Part shown: in pieces, positions 1-56,500 of the stretch
How positions within the stretch are numbered: the first letter of the stretch is position 1
Layout: each line of letters starts with the position of its first letter
Origin: an uncultured Alphaproteobacteria bacterium
GTDB taxonomy: Bacteria; Pseudomonadota; Alphaproteobacteria; Acetobacterales; Acetobacteraceae
Reading direction: 5' to 3'
Assembly: GCA_963826975.1 (NCBI GenBank)
Contig: CAWGZJ010000005.1
Coordinates: forward strand, 302,959 to 366,958
Length of the DNA stretch: 64,000 nucleotides
Made by a program: the position numbers and the translations under genes
Notes under the pieces: model-generated
Databases searched by the model: none
Seen by the model: only the letters and a program-made list of their open reading frames with translations
Told to the model about the DNA's origin: nothing

Positions 1-290
1 CGCGCATGAAGGTCTTCTGGTCGCCGTCGACGATGGTGCCCGGCGGGATTGTGCCGGCGGGGATCGTACCGGGGGGGTTGTCGGTCGCCATGCCGGCGGG
101 TCCCGCGGCGACGCCGGGCGCGGCAACGTTCTGGCCGATGATCACGTTCATTGGGTCAAGCTTCCTGGCATTCGCGTTGGTGCCATAGATGTTACACCGA
201 CGGCGCTTGGCAAGCACCGGGCGGCATTGTGCTGGAACCATGCCGCCCCGCGCGAACGCCGTCCAGCCCACGCGGCCGAGGCCAACCGCA

Positions 291-540: not shown

Positions 541-1874
541 TGGGTAACAGCTGTTCGGAGACATGGGTGACACTGGTTCGGCCGGATTTGGCCGGATTGA
601 GGAACACTCGATGCCTTTGTGGGAGCTGTCGGTGGTGGAGCAACGGGAGACGTTCGTGAAGCTTGCCCTGGCGAGCGGCGCGAACCGAAGCGAGTTGTGC
701 CGGGAATTCGGGATCAGCCGGAAGGCCGGCTACAAATGGCTTGAGCGGTATCGAGCGGCGGGCGGCGCAGGTCTTGGCGATCGCTCGCGTCGTCCGCACG
801 CGAGCCCATCGCGGACGGCTGATGCGACGGTGGCCGAGGTGCTGCGTATCCGGGCGTCGAGCAATAACGCCTGGGGTGGACGCAAGATCGCCTGGACGCT
901 GGCCAGCCATGGCTGGCGGCCAGTGCCAGCATTGAGCACGATCACCGAGATCCTGCGTCGCCACGGCAAGCTGGATCGCCAGGCGCAGCATCCCGGGCCG
1001 CATGTTCGATTTGAGCGCGCTGAACCCAACGAATTGTGGCAGATGGACTTCAAGGGGCATTTCGCGCTGGCGCTGGGGCGCTGCCATCCGCTCACGGTGC
1101 TCGATGATCACTCGCGGTATTCGCTGTGCCTCGAGGCCTGCGACAACGAGCAGGACCTGACAGTTCGCGACCGCCTGAGGACGTTGTTTCGCCGCTACGG
1201 ACTGCCGTTTGCGATGCTGATGGACAATGGCGCGCCATGGGGTGACTGCGGCGGCCAACCCTTCACCATCTTCACGGCATGGCTGATGCGCCATGGCATC
1301 AGGGTCAGCCACGGGCGTGCCTACCATCCGCAGACGCAAGGCAAAGAGGAGCGTTTCCATCGTTCGTTGAAGGCGGAGGTTCTCGACCGCAACAGCTTTG
1401 CCGATCTCACGGCGTGTCAGCGCGCCTTCGACCGATGGCGGCCGATCTATAATCATGAGCGGCCGCATGAGGCGCTTGGCCTCAAGCCGCCGGCGGCGCG
1501 CTATCGCCCCAGCCCGCGGGCGTTCTGCGAGGATTTGCCGCCGATCGAGTACGGGCCTGGCGATATTGTTCGCAAGGTCGACAGCGAAGGTGTGATCAGT
1601 TTCAGGAACCGGCCCATTCGCATCGGCAAGGCGTTCCGCAAGCAACCCGTGGCGCTGCGGCCCAGTTCGGACGATGGCGTCTTCGACGTGCACTACTGCG
1701 TCCATCGCATCGGCCAGCTGGATTTGCGACCCCTCGCCGCGGCCGCCTGTGGATTTGTGGACATCGCAAGAGCGATGCCCACAAATCCACAGGCGCAGCA
1801 TCAACACCAGGTCAAAAATGGACTTTGACCCAAAGTGGAGAAGTGTCACCCATGTCTCCGAACACCTGTCACCC
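541..1874 (+). mobile_element. IS481-family insertion sequence, ~1.33 kb, with imperfect terminal inverted repeats (left GGGTAACAGCTGTTCGGAGACATGGGTGACAC, right reverse-complement GGGTGACAGGTGTTCGGAGACATGGGTGACAC)
   Basis: Terminal inverted repeats read directly at 541-573 and 1843-1874; a single transposase ORF sits between them; the element interrupts a family-B palindromic repeat (505-536 and 1875-1992). Confidence 0.7.
611..1828 (+). CDS. IS481 family transposase (N-terminal HTH, DDE integrase core with WQMDFKGH motif)
   Basis: Translation MPLWELSVVEQRETFVKLALASGANRSELCREFGISRKAGYKWLERY...WQMDFKGH...YNHERPHEALG is typical of IS481/rve transposases; the C-terminal ~30 aa are probably read-through into the right IR. 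Confidence 0.8.
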   Translation: MPLWELSVVEQRETFVKLALASGANRSELCREFGISRKAGYKWLERYRAAGGAGLGDRSRRPHASPSRTADATVAEVLRIRASSNNAWGGRKIAWTLASHGWRPVPALSTITEILRRHGKLDRQAQHPGPHVRFERAEPNELWQMDFKGHFALALGRCHPLTVLDDHSRYSLCLEACDNEQDLTVRDRLRTLFRRYGLPFAMLMDNGAPWGDCGGQPFTIFTAWLMRHGIRVSHGRAYHPQTQGKEERFHRSLKAEVLDRNSFADLTACQRAFDRWRPIYNHERPHEALGLKPPAARYRPSPRAFCEDLPPIEYGPGDIVRKVDSEGVISFRNRPIRIGKAFRKQPVALRPSSDDGVFDVHYCVHRIGQLDLRPLAAAACGFVDIARAMPTNPQAQHQHQVKNGL

Positions 1875-2261
1875 TTGACTCCGGTCCAAACAGAGGGGGG
1901 GGGTGGGGGGAGGGGTTCGGCGCGGCGTGGACCTTCGGTGGGACCCTGGCACCAACCCCTCCCCCCAACCCCCGCCCTCAAGGGGAGGGGCAGAATGCTT
2001 TGCCCCGGTCCGCCCTTATCCTGATGTCTATGGCGCACCCCTGGCCTCGCGAACACCACGCCTGGCGCGGCGGTGCCGGCCGCGCCATGAGCCTGTCCCG
2101 CGCGTCCGGCCCCCCGCCCCATAGGGTCTTTGTCGCGATTTCGACGTTCGGCGGTCTGCGAGTGGCGCACCGCCGCCCACAAGACGGCCAGCACCATCGC
2201 CAGCCGCGGCGCTATCATACACCTCGCCCGGTTGCGGGCTTGGGCCGCGAAGAGCGGACGA

Positions 2262-3878
2262 TCACCGCGTCCGCCGTCCCGCACCAGCCTGCGCGAAGGG
2301 TCGTTGCACACAATCCCTACCAAACACTGCGGTCGCACCCACCGGCGTCACCGGCGACGCACTTCGACCCGGCGCCACCGTCCGACCCACCCGCGCCGTC
2401 GCCCCGAACAGCACATCGAGTTCCGCGCGCACGCTCGGTTGCCACGTCCCGGCCGGCGTCGTGCTCCGCAGCACCGCAGCCAGGCTCGGCGCCAGCCGCC
2501 CAGGCCCACTATCGTGGCCTGGCGCAGCGGCACGCTGCTGCACTGGGCATGCCCCGGGCACCGCGGGGCATACCCCCGGCCGCTCATCCGGAGGGTTGTT
2601 GCGCAAATCTCGCAGCGGCCACTTTACCCGCACGGCGGCCTCGGGCCGGGCGGCGCTGATCAGCGTCGGGCCGCGCGGCGACGCGGGTAAGGACGAGTCC
2701 CCCGGCGATCCAGCCGCCGCCGCCTCGCCCCGAGGGTTGTTGCGCAAATCTCGCAGCGGCCACTTTACCCGCGCGGCGGCCTCGGGCCGGGTGGCGCCCA
2801 CCACGGTCGGGCCACCCGGCGACGCGGGCAAGGACGCGTCGCCCGGCGATCCAACCGCCGCCGCCTCGCCCCGAGCGCATGCCCCCGCGCGCTTGCTCGG
2901 AGGGTTGTTGCGCAAATCCTGCAGGGGCCAATGTGCCCACCCCGCGGCCCCAGGCTGGGTGGCGCTCACCAGCGTCGGGTCGCGCCACGACGTGCGCAAG
3001 GACAAGTCCCCCGGCGATCCAACCACCGCCGCCTCGTCCCGAGGGCATGCCCCCGGCCGCTCGTCCCGAGGGTCGTTGCGCAAATCGCGCGCGGCGCCAT
3101 CGCCCGACTGCCCCGCGTTCCCCCGTGCCTCCCGCTTCGCCGCGCGGGCGAACGCGATCGCCGCCTTCCACGGCGCCCGGACGGCAGCCTCGGCCCGCGC
3201 CGCCAGCCGTTCGGCCACCCGGCGCGCGGGCGTTATCGGTATCCCCTCGATCGGCGCCTGCTCCCCAGCCGCCGGTCCGTCTGCGTCCACTCCGCAGGCA
3301 TGCCCCTCGGCGCTTGACCCGAGGGTTGTTGCGGAATTCAGCAAATCCGCCAAATCGGCCGCCAACTGCGGCGCCGAATGCGACCAATGCGGCGACGCCG
3401 CCAACTCCAGCACCGGCAACGCCAGCCGAGCCGCCATCGCCGCCGGCAAATACGCCCGCAAATCCGACGCCGCGCTCAACAGCTGGCCGCGCACGATCAC
3501 GCGTCGCACGGCAAGCTCCGCCGCCCGCTTCGGCGCGCCCGCCGGCCCATCCCGCCCGTGCGTCGTCTTCGAGGCGATCATCCGCGCCATCCCCTCCATG
3601 GTGCGCGGCCCGGTGCTGGTGCCGCCATGGATGCGGCACCGCCCGTTCGCCATCGGCGGCGCGCCGCACGGCGCGCCGCAGCGCGTCCGCGCCCCGCAGC
3701 ACACCGCCGGATCGCCCGGTCCCGCAGGCTCGCCGGCGAGCGCCAACCGTCCCTCGCCCGCCTGGCCGGCCACGGACGTGCCCGGCGGCGCGCCCGGCGG
3801 CACCTCCGCCACTGGGCCAGCCTCGGCGGGATTTGCCGCCATCGGGCACAGCTTCGTCGGGTCTACGGTCACACCCAC
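2262..3878 (-). CDS. Hypothetical Cys-rich protein (zinc-ribbon-like CCGARTRCGAPCGAPPMANGRCRIHGGTSTGPRT) whose C-terminal half is encoded by the 150-bp tandem repeats (WPLRDLRNNP... units)
   Basis: ORF in the high-GC repeat region; the repeat-encoded part may be non-coding; could be a frameshifted continuation of 3869..5008. Confidence 0.3.
   Translation of the reverse strand: MGVTVDPTKLCPMAANPAEAGPVAEVPPGAPPGTSVAGQAGEGRLALAGEPAGPGDPAVCCGARTRCGAPCGAPPMANGRCRIHGGTSTGPRTMEGMARMIASKTTHGRDGPAGAPKRAAELAVRRVIVRGQLLSAASDLRAYLPAAMAARLALPVLELAASPHWSHSAPQLAADLADLLNSATTLGSSAEGHACGVDADGPAAGEQAPIEGIPITPARRVAERLAARAEAAVRAPWKAAIAFARAAKREARGNAGQSGDGAARDLRNDPRDERPGACPRDEAAVVGSPGDLSLRTSWRDPTLVSATQPGAAGWAHWPLQDLRNNPPSKRAGACARGEAAAVGSPGDASLPASPGGPTVVGATRPEAAARVKWPLRDLRNNPRGEAAAAGSPGDSSLPASPRGPTLISAARPEAAVRVKWPLRDLRNNPPDERPGVCPAVPGACPVQQRAAAPGHDSGPGRLAPSLAAVLRSTTPAGTWQPSVRAELDVLFGATARVGRTVAPGRSASPVTPVGATAVFGRDCVQRPFAQAGAGRRTR
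2560..3110. repeat. Tandem array of ~4 units of ~150 bp, each containing the family-D motif GCATGCCCCCGG..CCCGAGGGTTGTTGCGCAAATC
   Basis: Near-identical 150-bp units read directly; family-D units also occur singly at 425-480 and 3297-3345, and partially at 29612-29650 and 59395-59440. Confidence 0.75.
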
Positions 3879-5008
3879 ACCGCCACCCCGCTACCCGCGA
3901 CCTGGCGCGGCCCACCGCGGGCGGCACCGCCGCCATCCCGCGGCGCGGCCGCGGTGCCGTCGGGCCGGCGAGACACCAGGCCCGCGTGGTCCGCCGCCGC
4001 ACCAACGTTCTCAGCATCGCCCCGCGGCTCCCGGCCAGGCTGGCCATCCGGTTCGGCTGCGCCGGCTCCCGCCCGCGCACCCGGCCGGGCAGGCCAAACC
4101 TCCAGCGTCCAGCCATCGCCTTGTTCCACGGTCACGCCATCCACGCGCGCGACCTGTCCGGATGACGGTATGCTGGGCCTGCTGGGCGGACCCTCAGCCG
4201 CCACTGCGACCGGCGCCGCCGGCCCGCCCGCTGCCGTCTCGGCCCGCGGCTCTACCCTTTCCGTCGTGGCGCGCCCGGGGGCAGGCTCCGCCGGGCGAGC
4301 CACGGCGTCTTGCTCCCCAACCGCCGACCCCGGGACCGCCGTTTCACGCCGCCGAGGGCTTGCCGCCGGGTTGTCCACTGGGTTTCCCACAGGACTTTCC
4401 ACTGGGTTGCCCACCGGGTTGTCCACGCGATTTCCCCCCGACTTGCCCACTGCGCTTCCCTCTGGGCTTCCCACTGCACCTCCCACCAGTTTGCCCACTG
4501 AATTTCCCACTAAATTTCCCACCGGGCCCGCGCCAAGGAGCGGACCGTCGGCCGGCTCGCGCCGGCACCAGACCGCGTCCATCGCGTCGAGATCGAACCC
4601 GTCCACCGCCCGCACGTCGCGGAACGGCATCACCCGGAATTGCCGCCGCTCCAGCGAGCGCTCCAGCCGAGCCACCGTCTGCGCCAACGCATCCATCAGG
4701 CGGGTCAGCCGGTACATCTCCAACATGTCCAACCCCGGTGCGTGGATCTGCGCCGCAAGACCGTCCGCCATGAACTGGAACACCGCGATCTGCGCCGCCA
4801 GGTGCCCCTGTGCCGCGTCCATCGGCACCCGCGCGGCAACCTCCTCGATGACCCGTGTCACCCGCGCGTGGCGCCAGGCGGCGGTCGCCGCGGCGGGCGG
4901 CGGCGGGATGGCAGCAAACACACCGTTCAGCAGATCCGGCGGGATGTGGTACTCCGGCATCAACTCCTGGATGACGCGGAAGGTGATGGCGGCGGGATCT
5001 TCGGACAT
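3869..5008 (-). CDS. Hypothetical protein, N-terminal part (MSEDPAAITFRVIQELMPEYHIPPDLL...), with NPVGNPVESPVGNPVDNP low-complexity repeats; possibly fused by a frameshift to 2262..3878
   Basis: Long ORF preceded by an AT-rich promoter-like stretch at 5040-5100; it overlaps the next ORF by 10 nt in a different frame. Confidence 0.35.
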   Translation of the reverse strand: MSEDPAAITFRVIQELMPEYHIPPDLLNGVFAAIPPPPAAATAAWRHARVTRVIEEVAARVPMDAAQGHLAAQIAVFQFMADGLAAQIHAPGLDMLEMYRLTRLMDALAQTVARLERSLERRQFRVMPFRDVRAVDGFDLDAMDAVWCRREPADGPLLGAGPVGNLVGNSVGKLVGGAVGSPEGSAVGKSGGNRVDNPVGNPVESPVGNPVDNPAASPRRRETAVPGSAVGEQDAVARPAEPAPGRATTERVEPRAETAAGGPAAPVAVAAEGPPSRPSIPSSGQVARVDGVTVEQGDGWTLEVWPARPGARAGAGAAEPDGQPGREPRGDAENVGAAADHAGLVSRRPDGTAAAPRDGGGAARGGPRQVAGSGVAVWV

Positions 5009-10269: not shown

Positions 10270-11596
10270 GGACACGCGGGCTTGTGGTGCTGTGCGTGCT
10301 GGGCGCTGCGGCGCTGGGCGGCGGGTGGTATTTCGGCACGGCGCGCGAGCCGGCCATGCAGACCAGCGTCGCCGGTGGCACGCTGATGTTCCCCGGCCTG
10401 ACCGCGCACCTGGCCGATGCCGCGCGGATCGAGATCACCCACCAGGGCACGACGATCGCCCTGGTGCGGCTGGGCGACAAACCCAAATCGCCCTGGGGCC
10501 TGCAGCAGCGCGGCAATTACCCAGTGCAGGTCACCAAGTTGCGCGGGATGCTGACCGCACTGACCGAACTGCGGCTGGTCGAACCGCGCACCACCGATCC
10601 GACGATGTTCGGCCGGCTCGGGCTGGCGGACACCGACCAAAAGGACAGCTCGGCCGATCTGCTGCGCGTGTTCGACAGCTCGGCCAAGCCGATCGCCGAG
10701 CTGCTGGTCGGGCATCGCCGGGTGCGCACCGCGGGCAATGTGCCGGACCAGGTGTTCGTGCGCCGGCCGGGTGAATTGCAGACCTGGCTGGCCGAGGGCA
10801 GCCTGCAGGTGGACGCCGATCCGCAGCTTTGGCTCGATCGCGACATCATGAACATCGATCACGCGCGCATCGCCGGCGTCGTGGTGCATCGTGGCGATAC
10901 CGAACTGGATTTCGCGGCCAAGGACGGCAAGCTGGTGCTGACCGCGCCGGCCAATCCTCCCCCGCTCGAGGACTACAAGCTGGACGACCTGGAGCGTGGA
11001 TTGGAACTGCTGACGTTTGAGGATGTCACGCCCGACAAGGACGCGGCGGCGAGCAAGGTGGGCGATCCGATCGGCACCTCGGTGTTCACCACCTCGGATG
11101 GGCTGGCGGTGCACGTGACGCTGCTGAAGGGCGAGAAGGATATCTGGGCGCGGTTCAGTGCTGCCGCCAGCGACAAGGCCCCCACCGACAAGGCTGCCAA
11201 CGATAAGGCTGCCAGCGACAAGACCGCCAGCGACAAGACCCCCAGTGACAAGACCCCCAGTGACAAGACCCCCAGCGACAAGGCCGCCAATGACAAGACC
11301 CCCAACGACAAGACCAAGGACGAGGCGGCGAAGCTGAATGCCAAGCTGGCCGGATGGACGTTCCAGCTCGGGTCGTGGAAACAGGCGGCGCTGACACCGG
11401 ACCTGGATGCGCTGAAGGCGCCGCCCCCTGCCCCCGCGCCGACCGCTAACCCTGCCCCGCCCTCTGCCTCTACCCCACCCGCCGCGCCGAACGCTGCGCC
11501 CGCCGCGCCGCCCGCTGCGCCCACCGCGGCTCCGCCTGCCGCGCCGGCCGCGGCGCCCACCGCGGCTCCGTCCCGCGCGCCAACCGCGCGGAAGCC

Positions 11597-22596: not shown

Positions 22597-22802
22597 CTTA
22601 ACCTCTCCCGCCCTTACGCGGGAGAGGTCGAGGCGCAAAGCGCCAAGGGTGAGGGTGCCCCCCACCACCACCCCATCAACAGCCGCCCACCACAGCTTAC
22701 TGATCCCCGGCAGGGCGGAAAAGCGAAGCGCCTACCGCCTCTCTCACCCCATTGCCGCGTTCAAGGACGATATCGCCAACCGGTGCTTCCCACGCAACCG
22801 CC

Positions 22803-23525
22803 TCAGGCCGGCGATCGCAGCAAGGCCAGCGTCTCCTCCGGCTCCGGCCGGCGCGTGTAGTCCGGGTCCGCCTCGATCCCCAATACCGCGCCGCCTCTCG
22901 CCAGCACAACGCGGGCCGGCACCGGCAAGCGCCAACTGCTGTCGCCGTCGAACGTCGGCAGGTCAATGCCAAAGCGGGCGTAGATCTTGATCAGGTCATC
23001 AGGCAACTGCATCGCGATGCCATAGGCTTCGGCCACCTTGTTGCCGGCGTCGAACAGCAAATCGAAACCCAGCTTCATCTGCGCGCGCATCTCCAGCGAG
23101 ATCGCCGGCAGTTGCGGCGAGATCACCACCAGTTCGGCGCCGAGAGCGTGAATATCCGGAAGTACTGCGTTCAGAGCTGACAGCTCATGTCGGCAGTAGG
23201 GTCACCATCGGCCTCGGAAGAACGAGACCAACAGCGGTCCACGCGCCACCAGCGCGGCCGAGGACACATCCACCCCGTCCTGGTTGGCCAACGTGAACGC
23301 CGGACCGGGCTGGCCCGGCTTCGGCATGCGCGCCTGAAAGCCCGAGGCACGCTGGTCCGCGGTCACGCGATGCATGATCTTCAGGTCGTCGGGCGATATC
23401 CGGCCCGGCTTGGTGCCGTCGCCTTCCCCCGCGCGGCGGATTGTGTCGAGCGCATCCTTGAGCGAGGCCATCGGCACTCCTTCCCCAATGCGCCGAACGT
23501 TAGGCCGCCCGACGGCTCCCGGCAA
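22803..23525 (-). CDS. Peroxiredoxin-like (AhpC/TSA thioredoxin-fold) protein with an in-frame TGA at the first Cys of the WCPYC motif (W-TGA-PYC): candidate selenoprotein or TGC-to-TGA pseudogene
   Basis: ORF 23202..23525 ends ...LLVSFFRGRW at TGA (23202-23204). The same frame continues PYCRHELSALNAVLPDIHALGAELVVISPQ... into ORF 22803..23129, and both halves match the peroxiredoxin-like family continuously. Confidence 0.5.
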
Positions 23526-23660
23526 GATCGGCCCTTCCGGGTCGACCTTCCGGGGTCACGCGCCCATTCCTCGTGCCGCCGTCGCGAAGGAAGAGTTTTA
23601 GCGCGGACGCAAGCGACCCTGGCGCAAGCGACCCGGGCGCAAGCGACCGGGCGCAAGCGC

Positions 23661-32905: not shown

Positions 32906-32982
32906 AGCGTTGGAGCGGGATTCGAACCCGCGACACGATGTTTATCAGACATCTGCTCTACCCATCTGAGCTATCCTTTCCG
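32906..32982 (-). tRNA. tRNA-like sequence with Ile(GAT)-type anticodon loop CTGATAA, good D- and T-arms, but the acceptor stem does not pair as read
   Basis: Minus-strand GGATAGCTCAGATGGGTAGAGCAGATGTCTGATAAACATCGTGTCGCGGGTTCGAATCCCGCTCCAACGC; D-arm GCTC/GAGC and T-arm GCGGG-TTCGAAT-CCCGC are canonical. Confidence 0.4.
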
Positions 32983-33058
32983 AGCAATCGACCGGACTCG
33001 AACCGATATTCCCGGGACAATCCCGGTGCTCTGCCCTTGAGCTACGACCACACCCTTC
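32983..33058 (-). tRNA. Second tandem tRNA-like sequence (canonical D-arm and GGTTCGAGTCC T-arm, atypical anticodon arm, GU-rich acceptor)
   Basis: Minus-strand GTGGTCGTAGCTCAAGGGCAGAGCACCGGGATTGTCCCGGGAATATCGGTTCGAGTCCGGTCGATTGCT. Confidence 0.3.
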
Positions 33059-33755: not shown

Positions 33756-35415
33756 TCAGCTATGCCAACGGAACTCCTGCGGCTTCCGCGCCGAGCCCAG
33801 ACTGAGCTTGACGTTGACCAGCGCCGGCCCCCTGAAGTTCATCGCCTCATCCAGCGCACCGCGCAGGTCCTTCGGGTCCTCGACATAGAACCCCTTGCCG
33901 CCGAACGCCTCCATCATCAGGTCGTAACGAGCGCCCCAGATCAGCGAGTTCGGCCGCATATTCAGCATCGGGTTGTGCGGAATTTCCTCCATCCCCGGCC
34001 CGATGCCGCCGTTGTTGAACACGACGATCTTCGCCGGCATTCCGTAACGACACAGCGTCTCCATCTCCATGCCGGAGAAGCCGATCGCCGAGTCCCCCGA
34101 GACGTGCACCACCGGCCGATCAGGATGCACGACGCACGCGGCGATGACGATACCCAGGCCGACGCCCATCGTGCCATAGCTGCCGGCGTCCAACCGCGAG
34201 CGCGGCAGGAAATTCGGCAACTGAGTGCGGCCGATATCCATCGTGCTGGCGCCCTCGCTGCAAACGATCGCGTTCTTCGGCGTCCAGGCCGCGACATCGC
34301 GCAACAGCCGATAGTAGCCGCCCGGCGCCGAGTTCATCGGCGATCTGCGGCGCGATCAGCGCAGCGTTTTCAGCCGACTTCTTGGTGATCGCCGCGCGCC
34401 ACGGCGTCTCCTTCGGATAGAACCACTGACGGCTTTCCAGCGCCTTGTTCAACTGCCCCACGATCGCCTTGCCGTCACCGCACAGCGCGACCTCGGCCGG
34501 CTTGTTCTGGTGCATCGCTTCCGGTTCGATATCGAGCTGAATGACCCGCACATCCTTGTTGTAGCGCGGCGGCAGGCCGAAATGCATGATCCAGTTGAAG
34601 CGCGCGCCCATCAGGAACACCACATCGGCCTGTTGCAACGCCAGGCTGCGTGACGCGCCGACCGATAGCGGGTGGTCGTCGGGCATCACGCCCTTGCCCA
34701 TGGGCGAGGCCAGGAACGGCACTTGTGTGCGCTCGATGAACGCGCGCACCTCGTCCTCGGCACGCGAGAAGGCCATGCCTTTGCCGATGATCACCAGCGG
34801 CCGCTCGGCCGATTGCAGCACGTCCAGCGCCTGCTCGACGTATTGCGGCATCGTCTGGATGCGCGGCGGCTCCGGGCATTTCGCGACCTGCATCGCCTTG
34901 TCCACGTCACAGCCGCCGGTGATGATGTCGTCCGCGATGTCAAGATAGGTGGCGCCCGGCCGGCCGTAGATCGATTGCCTGACCGCCATCTCGACGTAGA
35001 ACGGGATGCGGTGCACGTGCTCGATGCCGTGCGCCCATTTGCACAGCGGCGTCGCGGCCAGAACCTGGCGCTCTTCCTGGAAGGCGCCCATGCCGTTGCG
35101 GTAGGTTTCCGATGCGCCGCCGATCAACAGCATCGGCCAGCAATTCTGCTGCGCATTCGCCAGGCCAGCCAGACCGTGGATGACGCCCGGACCGGTCACG
35201 ACGATGCACGAGCCCGGGCGCCCCGTCAGGTAGCCGACGGCACCGGCGGCGTACGACGCGGTCTGCTCGTTGCGCATCCCGATATAGGGGAGGCCAACCT
35301 TCTGCGCTGCCTCGGCGAGCGGACCCACCGGGAACCCCACCACGCCGAACATGAATTGCACGCCTTGTTCCTTGAGGCTTTTCGCCAGCAAGTCAGCGCC
35401 TTTGATCTCAGCCAT
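33756..35415 (-). pseudogene. oxc: Oxalyl-CoA decarboxylase (ThDP-dependent), split by a single frameshift near 34330-34390
   Basis: N-terminal 431-aa ORF (34120..35415) and C-terminal 193-aa ORF (33756..34337) together match full-length Oxc; the junction is ...ENAALIAPQIADE / MNSAPGGYYRLL. Confidence 0.75.
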
Positions 35416-48850: not shown

Positions 48851-49111
48851 ACCCCATTCAACGAAGCCAATCGCCGTTGATCCAGACTAAGGCAGCACCT
48901 TCGCACCGGTATCAGCCTGCCACCATGTGTCTCACCAATCTGATTGCAACCTCGGATCAGCCTGTAGCGCGCCGCACCAACGATCCGGTAGCGCCACGGG
49001 CGACGGCGCGACCGCAGTCGCCACGCGAGGTGCGGACGTTTCTTCCCCGTGTCTCTATAATAAACGTTGCGTGTTCGCGAACCGTCCGCGATTCGCAATG
49101 GGGTGATAGAC

Positions 49112-49678
49112 ATGGACGTGGTCGAACTGTCCCGCCTGCAATTCGGCCTAACGGCGATGTACCACTTCCTCTTCGTCCCCCTGGCCCTAGGCCTAGCCAT
49201 CCTGCTCGCCATCATGGAGAGCATCTACGTCACCACCGGCCGCACCATCTGGCGCGACATCACCAAATTCTGGGGCCTGCTGTTCGGCATCAACTTCGCC
49301 ATGGGCGTCGCCACCGGCCTGACCATGGAATTCGAGTTCGGCACCAACTGGGCCTACTACGCGCACTACGTGGGCGACATCTTCGGCGCCCCCCTGGCGA
49401 TCGAGGGCCTGATGGCCTTCTTCCTGGAAGCCAGCTTCATCGGCCTGTCCTTCTTCGGCTGGAACCGGATGACCCGCGTGCAGCACCTGATCGCCACCTG
49501 CCTGATGGCGATCGGCACCAACCTCTCGGCCCTGTGGATCCTGATCGCCAATGGCTGGATGCAGAACCCGGTCGGCGCGCGGTTCAACATCGCCACCATG
49601 CGCATGGAGGTCACCGACTTCTTCGCCGTCCTGGAGATCAGTTTCCCAGGCTTACAAGTCGAACGGGTAAGGAGGTAG
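49112..49678 (+). pseudogene. cydA: Cytochrome bd ubiquinol oxidase subunit I (CydA), N-terminal ~185 aa only; truncated at ~49640 where sequence composition changes
   Basis: [27 protein letters not shown]...GWNRMT...[10 protein letters not shown] matches the CydA N-terminus; full CydA is ~450-520 aa and no cydB follows. Confidence 0.7.
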
Positions 49679-53536: not shown

Positions 53537-56500
53537 ATGCGATTCTCGCATTTCTTCATCGAGCGGCCGATCTTCGCCGCGGTTCTGTCGATCGTCATCA
53601 CCATCGCCGGCGCGCTGGTCCAGCGGGCGCTGCCGATCTCGGAATATCCCGATATCGCGCCGCCCACGGTCAACATCCGCGCCAACTATCCCGGCGCCTC
53701 CGCCCAGGTGCTCGCCGAAACCGTGGCGACGCCGATCGAGCAGCAGGTGAACGGCGTCGACGACATGCTGTACATCACCAGCCAGTCGGTCGGCGACGGC
53801 ACGCTGTCGATCGACGTGGTGTTCAAGCCCGGCACCGATATCGACATCGCGCAAGTGCTGGTGCAGAATCGGGTCTCCGTCGCCACGCCGCGACTGCCGG
53901 CTGAAGTGCAGCAGCTCGGCATCACGGTGCGCAAGGCCTCGCCCGACCTGATGATGGTCGTGCACATGATTTCGCGGGATGGCTCGCGCGACCAGCAATA
54001 CATCTCGAACTATGCAACGCTCTACATCAAGGATGCGCTGGCGCGGGTCGATGGCGTGGGCGACGTCAATGTCTTCGGCGCCCGCGATTATTCGATGCGC
54101 GTATGGCTCGATCCCGCCAAGGTAGCGGCGCGCGGGCTGACCGCTGGCGACGTGGTGAACGCGCTGCGCGCCGCAAACCTTCAGGTCGCCGCGGGCGCGA
54201 TCAACCAGCCGCCGGCGACCTCGCCGGGCGCGTTCCAGATATCGGTGCAGACGCTGGGCCGGCTGCGCGATGTCGAGCAGTTCGGCGACATCGTGGTGCG
54301 CGCCGATCCGGGCACCGGGTTCGTGCGCATCCGCGACATCGCCCGGGTCGAACTCGGCGCCCAGGACTACACGGTCAACGCCTATCTCAACAAAGCCGTG
54401 GCAACCGCCATCGTGATCTATCAGCGCCCAGGCTCCAACGCGCTCTCTACCGCGGCCGCGATCAAACAGGCGATGGCGGAGGCCAAGCGGAATTTCCCGC
54501 CCGGCCTCGATTATTCGATCGTCTACAATCCGACCGAGTTCATCCAGCAATCCGTCAATGAGGTCGTGCGCACCCTGTTCATCGCAATCGGCCTCGTTGT
54601 CTGCGTCGTGATCCTGTTCCTGCAAACCTGGCGCGCCGCGATCATTCCGGTGGTGGCCATTCCGGTGTCGCTGATCGGCTGCTTCCTGGTCATGGGGATG
54701 GTCGGAATCGGCTTCAACACCCTGTCGCTGTTCGGCCTGGTGCTGGCGATCGGCATCGTGGTGGACGACGCGATCGTCGTGGTCGAGAACGTCGAGCGCT
54801 ATCATCCGCGAGGGCATGACGCCGAAGGACGCCGCGCATGAGACGATGGACGAGGTCGGCAGCGCGCTGATCGCCATCGCCCTGGTGCTGTGCGCGGTGT
54901 TCATCCCGACCGCTTTCATCAGCGGATTGCAGGGCTCGTTCTACCGCCAGTTCGCCATCACCATCGCCGCGCGCGACGGTGATCTCCGCCATGGTGTCGC
55001 TGACCCTGTCGCCGGCGCTGGCGGCGCTGCTGTTGAAACCGCACGACGCGGCGCCAAAGCCGACACTGATGCATCGCCTGGCCACGCCGCTGCGTGGATT
55101 CTTCGCCGGTTTCAACTGGGCGTTCGACCGCGTGTCGCTGGGCTATGGCCGGCTGGTCGGCCGGCTGGTGCGGATCGGCGCCATCGTGCTGGTGGTCTAC
55201 GCGGCGCTGATCTATGCCGCCTACAATCGGCTGGCCGCGACGCCCACCGGACTTATCCCGCAGCTCGACCGCGGCTATCTGATCGCCGCGTTCCAGCTTC
55301 CGCCGGGCGCCTCGCTCGCGCGCACCGACGCAGTGATCCGCCGGGCGTCCGAGATCATTCTGCAACGACCGGGCGTGCAGAACTCCGTCGCATTCACCGG
55401 ATTTGACGGCGCGACCTTCACCAACGCGCCCAACGCCGGCGTGATCTTCGTGCCGTTGAGCCCGTTCGAGGAACGCGTGTCGCGCGGCCTGACTGCGCCG
55501 CGCATCCTCGCCGATTTGCGCCAGCAGCTAGCCCAGATCGACGACGCCTTCGCCTTCGTGCTCGAGCCGCCCTCGGTTCCCGGCATCGGCACCGGCGGCG
55601 GGCTGAAGCTGTACGTCCAGGACCGCACCGGGCAGGGCTTGCCCGCGCTGGAGCAGGCTACCTGGATCGTTGCCGGCTCGGCGGCGCAGACCCCTGGCTT
55701 CACCCAGGCCTTCACCCTGTTCAACACGCATACGCCGCAGATCTACGCCGATATCGACCGCACCAAGTCGGAGTTGTTGCAGGTGCCGATCGGGCGCGTG
55801 TTCGAAGCGCTGTCGGTCTACATGGGGTCGTCCTACATCAACGACTTCAACCTGGCCGGACGCACCTATCAGGTGATGGCGCAGGCCGACAACCCGTACC
55901 GGCTGACCCTGCGCGACGTCGAAAACCTGAAGACGCGCAACGCCGGCGGCGACATGGTGCCGATCGGTGCGGTGGCGACATTCCGTGACACGACCGGACC
56001 GTTCCGCGTGCCGCGCTACAACCTCTATCCGGCGGCCGAGGTGCAGCTTGGCCTGGCGCGCGGCTTTTCCACCGGCCAGGCGATCGCCGCGATCGAGAAG
56101 ATCGCCGCCGAGCGTCTGCCCCCCGGCTTCGGGTTCGAATGGACCGAGATCGCGCTGCAGGAGAAGCTCGCCGGCAACACCGCGCTCTGGCGTTCGGCCT
56201 CGCGGTCGCCTTCGTCTTCCTGCTGCTGGCGGCGCTGTACGAGAGCTGGCTGCTGCCGCTCGCCGTCGTGCTGATCGTGCCCATGTGCATTCTGGCGGCG
56301 ATGCTCGGGGTGAACGCGCGCGGGCTGGACCGCAACATCCTGGTCGAGATCGGGCTGGTGGTGCTGGTCGGACTGGCCGCCAAGAACGCCATTCTGATCG
56401 TGGAATTCGCCAAGCAGGCCGAGAACGAGGGCATGACAAGGTTCGAAGCGGCGGTTGCCGCGGCGCGTACGCGGTTGCGGCCGATCCTGATGACCTCGAT

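Follow-up and report, generated by a model that had tools for sequence, protein, structure and literature searches.

A conserved in-frame UGA and a conserved downstream hairpin point to a selenocysteine-containing peroxiredoxin-fold oxidoreductase in Acetobacteraceae

The Prx-like thiol:disulfide oxidoreductases of Zhang and Gladyshev, named 'Prx-like 1' in the Global Ocean Sampling (GOS) study, are a predicted family of selenoproteins belonging to pfam00578, with a redox centre of the form UxxC or UxxU, in which U is selenocysteine (Sec) (PMC1088965, PMC2398784, PMC1794560). The family is among the most abundant in the GOS data (PMC2398784), occurs in Geobacter, Syntrophus, and Desulfotalea (PMC1794560), and has been reviewed (PMC9312934, PMC13188914), being defined in the first of these reviews by domain and motif. 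Among the selenoproteins in a 2026 review is also a "peroxiredoxin-like family protein" (cd02970) with UxxS. In Alphaproteobacteria, FdhA was reported in 2006 as the only selenoprotein (PMC1794560). The pairing of UGA with Cys at a redox-active site is the classic signature of a selenoprotein, and the bacterial Sec insertion sequence (SECIS) follows the UGA directly, as a stable stem-loop whose apical loop is small and contains G (PMC1088965). Here, we analyzed a 64-kb stretch of DNA (the window, 64,000 nucleotides) from an uncultured member of the Acetobacteraceae, in which a minus-strand gene at 22803..23471 is split into two fragments by gene callers. Very probably, this is one intact gene for a Sec-containing, peroxiredoxin-fold thiol:disulfide oxidoreductase of 222 residues. 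Both features that define the Prx-like family, a PF00578 domain and Sec within UxxC (U90-P-Y-C93), are found in its predicted product, which would thus belong by domain and motif to that family, whose reference member is WP_010940744.1 of Geobacter.

Translation of the window gives a minus-strand frame, 23471..22803, of 222 codons with one internal stop, a TGA at 23204..23202, before the true stop TGA at 22805..22803. The internal TGA is codon 90, in the context ...LLVSFFRGRW-TGA-PYCRHELSAL..., at the place where the family motif, FYRGxWCPYC, has its first Cys; read as Sec, it would yield 221 standard residues plus Sec90. The initial annotation had proposed that two adjacent minus-strand open reading frames (ORFs) form one continuous protein of a peroxiredoxin-like family with this motif, the sole break being a TGA at 23202-23204 in place of the first Cys codon. 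Each of these points is borne out by the single 222-codon frame and its translation, by profile matches that span the break when Cys is put at the TGA (Pfam AhpC-TSA, PF00578, 8e-21, 74.7 bits against a cut-off of 26, residues 52-155; Pfam Redoxin, 6e-14), and by the consensus SFYRGVWCPYC of 46 full-length homologues. The ORF limits that it gave, 23525 and 23129, stand as mechanical first-start coordinates, but the real start is most likely ATG 23471. We prefer this start because a Shine-Dalgarno-like AAGGAG (23477..23482, minus strand), read from the sequence and putatively functional, lies 5 nt before it and because it matches the MASLK start of orthologues, in which both the start and the end of the gene are kept. 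The two halves of the gene display coding-like GC by codon position, with GC at third positions (GC3) of 0.80 and 0.82 in a genome of 65% GC, and no in-frame TGA in the window other than the one between them lies between two coding-like stretches. When we looked for Sec motifs of the FdhA type by regular expression and for other in-frame TGAs between coding-like stretches, no second selenoprotein candidate was found.

A search of 5.8 billion proteins showed how relatives of this gene are represented in databases. Among the 120 matches listed, 108 are full-length Cys forms, all with WCPYC and at most 52% identical, whereas all matches above 52% identity (65-89%) are C-terminal fragments of 123-138 residues that begin a few residues past the motif; no full-length Sec form is among the 120. 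The starts of the fragments differ between orthologues (MSALNAV, MNAVLP, MKLAFD, MLPDIH, LNAVLP, and others). In the DNA encoding two of them (L001 and L002), which lie in unrelated gene neighborhoods, an upstream ORF of 88-89 codons ends with W-TGA, in frame with the fragment. We also scanned GTDB, one genome per species, with peptide patterns from the C-terminal half only, so that the search had no bias towards TGA, and recovered 25 loci. The initial annotation had raised the question whether close relatives carry Cys or Sec at this site, and the answer is clear: codon 90 is TGA in 23 of the 25 loci, at 42-95% protein identity, TAA or TAG in none, and TGC only in the two most distant, which are gammaproteobacterial (Sedimenticola and Kangiellaceae). 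Among the carriers of TGA are the isolate Rhodopila globiformis DSM 161, metagenome-assembled genomes (MAGs) of Rhodopila and other Acetobacteraceae, with 59-95% identity, and, with 42-45%, more remote MAGs from Alphaproteobacteria (L019, L022, L023, and L026). In the orthologues, the frame is continuous and without other stops. The in-frame UGA thus aligns with the Cys of homologues and is kept as UGA across orthologues, and the Sec/Cys pairing falls at the catalytic redox residue of an otherwise Cys-containing family. In a rough, unbootstrapped neighbor-joining tree, Sec forms fall into at least three separate lineages among Cys forms.

The same codon is seen in other assemblies of this species. 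Eight recorded contigs carry exactly the window's 89-residue N-terminal ORF, and the four that we examined, from different metagenomes of the Joint Genome Institute (JGI) and the European Nucleotide Archive (ENA), have the same gene order and the same TGA, at 98.9-99.97% nucleotide identity to the window and with 0-1 mismatches across the gene. A more distant locus, L003, is syntenic with the window at ∼91% nucleotide identity, which places the source of the window near Rhodopila within the Acetobacteraceae. The GatB encoded in the window gave no match in an exact look-up. One further metagenome contig (L032 74..727) has TGA at this codon, and the protein that it encodes (P0029) was printed with WWPYC by the JGI gene call. 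Full-length 'W' variants in databases can therefore hide selenoproteins.

Irregular copies of the gene were also noticed among these loci. In L027, an Alphaproteobacteria MAG, the intact Sec-form gene is followed 4 kb downstream by a second, partial copy (10970..11511), which is truncated and frameshifted (...VVSFFRAQW-TGA...). In the same-species contig L035, the region upstream of the gene (1..151) is not the DUF1127 gene but repeats the 3' end of the gene itself (window 22922..22772) at 91% identity, which could reflect a chimeric assembly or a rearrangement at the strain level.

Selection was estimated separately on the two sides of the TGA. In eight pairwise comparisons with the window, the ratio of nonsynonymous to synonymous substitution rates (dN/dS) was 0.09-0.30 over codons 1-89 and 0.07-0.25 over codons 91-222. 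Constraint is as strong beyond the TGA as before it, and both parts are conserved and under purifying selection. Equal constraint on the two sides is incompatible with a pseudogene and with termination at codon 90.

Directly after the UGA, within the coding sequence (codons 92-103), folding and synonymous-site conservation reveal a SECIS-like hairpin (23163..23198, minus strand; coordinates of its parts are on the same strand). Its lower stem, UACUGC/GCAGUA, pairs 23198..23193 with 23168..23163 and is separated by an internal loop from the upper stem, CA-(bulged U 23187)-GAGCU / AGCUC-UG (23189..23172), which is closed by the apical loop GUC (23179..23181). With the UGA as nt 1-3, G24 and U25 of this loop are the presumed contact for SelB. 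The short palindrome that had been reported ∼14 nt downstream of the UGA is real: GAGCU-GUC-AGCUC (23186..23174) starts 15 nt past the UGA and is the top of this longer, two-tier hairpin. Loops of bacterial SECIS elements lie 16-37 nt from the UGA, and the small, G-containing loop found here starts 20 nt past it. As assessed by folding, the 46 nt from the UGA have a minimum free energy of -13.8 kcal/mol, with z = -2.47 and 4 of 200 shuffles as good.

The closest well-known element for comparison is the SECIS of Escherichia coli fdhF, whose loop G-U contacts SelB. Our fdhF reference was verified as a 100% match inside fdhF in 5,419 of 5,426 E. coli genomes. Both elements are located directly 3' of the UGA within the ORF, have a bulged U at nt 18 (U 23187 here), carry G-U in a small apical loop at almost the same place (nt 23-24 for fdhF, nt 24-25 for the window), and are of similar predicted stability (-14.9 kcal/mol for fdhF versus -13.8 kcal/mol). 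They differ in the loop itself, which is GGUC (nt 22-25) in fdhF and GUC in the window, and in that the upper helix above the bulge has 3 bp in fdhF and 5 bp in the window. In a second variant of the hairpin, seen in many relatives, the upper stem is continuous, lacking the bulge of fdhF, and the loop is UGUAU (z = -4.6; 0 of 200 shuffles as good).

The hairpin is conserved among relatives, as expected if the initial annotation was right to look for a SECIS at this place: Sec forms share a hairpin with a G-U apical loop together with suppressed synonymous variation. The same architecture is present in 20 of the 20 Sec forms analyzed (-12 to -20 kcal/mol, apical loop 20-21 nt past the UGA), and among 19 distinct Sec-form sequences G24 never varies and conservation of U25 is at least 90%. 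Paired cells amount to 88%, compared with 19-46% in slid-partner controls, and two double-sided compensatory changes are seen (U-A to A-U in L018, C-G to U-A in L012). In 22 Sec-form genes, codon usage over the hairpin is essentially frozen, with GAG for E96 (22 of 22), CTG for L97 (21 of 21), GCA for A102 (17 of 17), and GCT for A99 (22 of 22), the last an AT-ending codon in a genome with ∼80% GC3, whereas comparable Ala, Gly, Pro, and Leu columns elsewhere in the gene use 3-5 codons each. The 9-codon window spanning codons 94-102 has the lowest normalized codon entropy of 203 such windows (0.215, versus a mean of 0.600), and the eight lowest-entropy windows all overlap codons 88-104. This conservation of synonymous sites is the strongest evidence for constraint at the RNA level.

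Cys-form relatives differ in just these respects. They have TGC or TGT where the window gene has UGA, and the constrained hairpin codons are missing in all but one (L030). In six Cys-form genes, codons at these sites are mixed (GAG/GAA; CTG/CTC/TTG; GCA/GCG/GCT/AGT), and five of the six lack the hairpin. The closest full-length Cys form (L030 86..736, encoding P0002, 52% identical) has kept a SECIS-like hairpin, GCAGAGC-UGGAG-GCUCUGC (-18.6 kcal/mol), and its first Cys is encoded by TGT, not TGC, as would be expected after a recent single-base conversion of TGA to TGT, i.e. of Sec to Cys. Otherwise, Cys-form members of the 'peroxiredoxin-like family protein' group, such as P0015 of Swaminathania salitolerans and P0050 of Skermanella mucosa, share with the window protein their length, architecture, FYRGxWCPYC motif, and C-terminal DPDYTRRPEPE, with 42-52% identity over the full length. 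We take this NCBI protein name to correspond to PRX_like2 (CDD cd02970).

For the structure, an AlphaFold model of the Cys homologue P0002, made with a 46-sequence alignment, was used in place of the window protein. The model has a mean predicted local distance difference test (pLDDT) score of 92 and displays a single-domain peroxiredoxin fold of the BCP/AhpE type. Its nearest solved folds, as assessed with Foldseek, are peroxiredoxins of the BCP/PrxQ and AhpE groups (Bcp4, AhpE, and BcpB; E ∼1e-11, target-normalized TM-score ∼0.8), over which it has ∼45 additional N-terminal residues modeled as helices. The first Cys of WCPYC directly precedes a long helix (84-102), and the attacking Cys of thioredoxin-fold CxxC centers usually sits just before a helix. 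In sequence alignments to solved proteins, Sec90 falls on the first Cys of ResA-type WCxxC oxidoreductases (3hdc, 4nmu, and 3c71). In the alignment to Aeropyrum pernix BCP (2cx3), Sec90 falls on the Ser/Thr of the peroxiredoxin motif PxxxT/SxxC, Cys93 on the peroxidatic Cys, and Arg86 on the Pro of the motif. These alignments and the model suggest that the protein is a thioredoxin-type U-x-x-C center on a peroxiredoxin scaffold.

The protein can be set apart from better known members of the fold. Canonical peroxiredoxins have PxxxT/SxxC(U) with Cys or Sec at the peroxidatic position, whereas here Cys93 occupies that position and Sec is three residues upstream; thus, although the overall fold is shared with BCP/PrxQ and AhpE and Cys93 is at the peroxidatic Cys, the motif is not kept, which rules out a canonical peroxiredoxin. 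A selenoprotein of the PrxU type (TxxU), in which Sec replaces the peroxidatic Cys itself, is ruled out by the position of Sec and by a score of 16 bits with the NCBIfam PrxU model, whose cut-off is 270. ResA/TlpA/DsbE-type CxxC oxidoreductases have a WCxxC center that aligns residue for residue, but they are shorter than the window protein and often periplasmic and membrane-anchored, and the NCBIfam ResA and DsbE models score far under their cut-offs. The model for SelL-related redox proteins (NF040769) gives 26 bits against a cut-off of 120. The best match is with the Prx-like selenoproteins, which have the same best Pfam family (PF00578), the same UxxC at the thioredoxin-like position, unlike the TxxU of true Sec-peroxiredoxins, a similar hairpin after the UGA with a G in a small loop, homologues that are mostly Cys forms, and a function that is likewise predicted. 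What distinguishes the window protein is a helical extension of ∼45 residues at its N terminus, its FYRGxW(C/U)PYC signature, which is that of the 'peroxiredoxin-like family protein' group, and its host, as published members are mainly from Deltaproteobacteria (Geobacter, Syntrophus, and Desulfotalea) and marine metagenomes. Clustering of neighboring genes showed no conserved neighbor-gene partner across the loci.

These features suggest how the gene would be expressed and how its product might work. With the ribosome at the UGA of codon 90, the hairpin at 23198..23163 would presumably be bound by SelB.GTP.Sec-tRNA(Sec) through its G-U apical loop and bulged U, and Sec would be inserted instead of termination, leading to a protein of 222 residues. 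Sec90, at the N-terminal end of the active-site helix, would correspond to the attacking first Cys of a thioredoxin-type CxxC center. In the likely chemistry, the selenolate of Sec90 would attack a disulfide or peroxide, forming a Se-S bond (selenenylsulfide) with Cys93 that would then be re-reduced by a thiol donor.

The initial annotation had regarded the gene as a candidate selenoprotein, and the conserved TGA, the purifying selection, and the conserved hairpin all support that view. Several results weigh against it. No selA, selB, selD, or tRNA-Sec was detected within the 64-kb window by a Pfam scan of 30 ORFs, Rfam, and ARAGORN. In two MAGs from Microflora Danica (MFD), L020 (10268..10320) and L021 (10268..10330), W-TGA-PY is kept and a 1-nt indel then frameshifts the rest, which could stem from errors in long-read assembly or from decay of the gene in these lineages. 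An 81-nt fold around the UGA is no better than shuffles (z = -0.22), only the 46-nt element being distinctive. Statistical covariation in the hairpin is weak, with no excess over column shuffles, because the hairpin is nearly invariant, and RNAalifold keeps only the four top pairs, without covariation. No Rfam SECIS family matched, either in the window at the gathering threshold or in 23050..23300 at E ≤ 10, where only chance matches to microRNAs and long noncoding RNAs were returned. Finally, the Prx-like selenoprotein family itself has the status of 'predicted' in the literature.

Of these, the Sec machinery matters most, and the main reason why our confidence, although high, is not higher is that it was checked in 64 kb only. 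In Alphaproteobacteria, selC can lie nested within selB. We also ran ARAGORN on the 25 related loci and tblastn against all DNA retrieved, the latter with E. coli SelA, SelB, and SelD sequences serving as probes only. For 24 of the 25 loci, neither sel genes nor tRNA-Sec were found in the flanks. In the remaining locus, L023, a Rhodospirillaceae MAG with a 45%-identical Sec form, selD is 8 kb from the Sec-form gene; its product is 50% identical to E. coli SelD, and its identity was confirmed by Pfam and by database relatives. When the L023 SelD was used as a query, no SelD labeled Acetobacteraceae or Rhodopila was among the 120 matches listed, which were only Rhodospirillales, Betaproteobacteria, and unnamed metagenome matches. 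Genes selB and selC have been reported in Roseomonas, of the same order Acetobacterales (PMC8124441), which means that the Sec-decoding trait exists nearby. In L023 (17211..19189), selD adjoins a TauD-family dioxygenase gene, and a TauD-family gene is also directly upstream of the Sec-form gene in L002, which may be coincidence.

The most obvious alternative is that a TGC-to-TGA nonsense mutation has turned an ordinary Cys-containing peroxiredoxin-like gene into a pseudogene. It gains some plausibility from other genes in the window that look split or truncated (an AcrB-type transporter, cytochrome bd subunit I, and a thiamine pyrophosphate (TPP) enzyme) and from the frameshifts after the motif in L020 and L021. 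However, an identical TGA is found at the identical codon in 23 species down to 42% identity, without other stops, dN/dS is 0.07-0.30 downstream of the TGA as well as upstream, no close relative has TGC, and both the hairpin and the synonymous sites are conserved. Because the TGA is conserved and both halves are under purifying selection, a pseudogene is excluded, and we regard this explanation as highly improbable and effectively refuted. That the TGA is merely a miscalled base in a TGC codon, a notion to which the apparent frameshifts in other window genes might lend credit as signs of an error-prone assembly, has a negligible probability, since four independent same-species assemblies (JGI and ENA) carry the TGA, as do one isolate genome and 22 other genomes. 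The independent assemblies likewise rule out a nonsense mutation private to this genome.

Two further explanations accept the UGA as genuine and deny that it specifies Sec. The gene could encode two separate polypeptides, an 89-residue N-terminal protein ending at the UGA and a C-terminal protein from an internal start, in line with the 89 and 108 aa annotated by gene callers. Such an arrangement would leave the W and the PYC of the redox motif in different polypeptides, the internal start is not conserved and callers place it differently between orthologues, the frame is continuous in all orthologues, and the fold is a single domain; we therefore consider it extremely unlikely. Alternatively, the UGA could be recoded otherwise, either as Cys by a tRNA(Sec)-like tRNA and a SelB-like factor or by SECIS-independent near-cognate read-through. 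On bioinformatic grounds, Cys-recoding systems that use SelB-like factors have been suggested for some bacteria, and no full set of sel genes was seen in the window or in related loci (only selD in L023), which favors this idea. Conversely, the hairpin resembles a canonical SelB-binding SECIS in its hallmarks, UGA/Cys pairing at a redox site is the classic selenoprotein signature (PMC1088965), and selD is close to the gene in L023 and selB/selC are present in relatives of the same order (PMC8124441). Recoding other than as Sec is thus very unlikely, and insertion of Sec at codon 90 is the reading that we favor.

If the gene encodes a selenoprotein, what is modestly new is the host lineage, Acetobacteraceae, with Sec fixed across a whole clade. 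We found no literature on Rhodopila or Acetobacteraceae together with Sec and saw no relative annotated as a selenoprotein. Automatic annotation breaks such genes into "hypothetical" or "redoxin" fragments, or may discard them as pseudogenes, and correction restores a redox enzyme to the proteome of a clade of soil Acetobacteraceae that includes the type strain R. globiformis, implying that these organisms use selenium. Because the isolate R. globiformis DSM 161 has a Sec form, an in vivo test of the predicted family may be possible. In addition, a well-sampled Sec/Cys family, with 24 Sec genes and a near-invariant SECIS, could be used to train selenoprotein finders for Alphaproteobacteria. 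The value of the finding is for annotation, with some evolutionary interest, and it does not reveal a new mechanism or kind of system. A bolder view, which we judge quite improbable, is that the Sec forms are a whole uncatalogued clade of PRX_like2-type 'peroxiredoxin-like family proteins', fixed in soil and peat Acetobacteraceae (Rhodopila and relatives) and with Sec also in at least two other alphaproteobacterial lineages. Most of these are aerobic alphaproteobacteria, in which formate dehydrogenase long passed for the sole selenoprotein; at its most unusual, some genomes without canonical selABCD would decode UGA differently.

Other features of the window were noted in passing. Between the DUF1127 gene and the selenoprotein gene, at 23604..23660, there are three to four direct repeats of ∼13 nt, GGTCGCTTGCGCC, and at this site L003 has ∼880 bp extra relative to the window (alignment break at L003 8976 to 9858). 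Two tandem tRNA-like sequences on the minus strand (32912..33051) score 51 and 43 bits with the Rfam tRNA model. One is called 'tRNA-???' by ARAGORN, with a two-base anticodon and an anticodon loop that is apparently too short, and the other resembles tRNA-Ile(GAU), but its 5' acceptor arm is incomplete; degeneration of the tRNAs or indels in the assembly may be the cause. Several genes look broken (53537..56271, 49067..49675, and 33756..35415): the AcrB-type transporter is in two ORFs in different frames, which match positions 1-412 and 473-866 of a 1021-position profile, the match of cytochrome bd subunit I is limited to profile positions 1-168 of 418, and the TPP enzyme is without its C-terminal domain, with a coding-like ORF adjoining in another frame. 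This suggests real pseudogenes or assembly indel errors. An IS481-type transposase with rve and HTH domains is found at 563..1825, and the sequence after it (2001-4000) has 75% GC and long overlapping ORFs on both strands.

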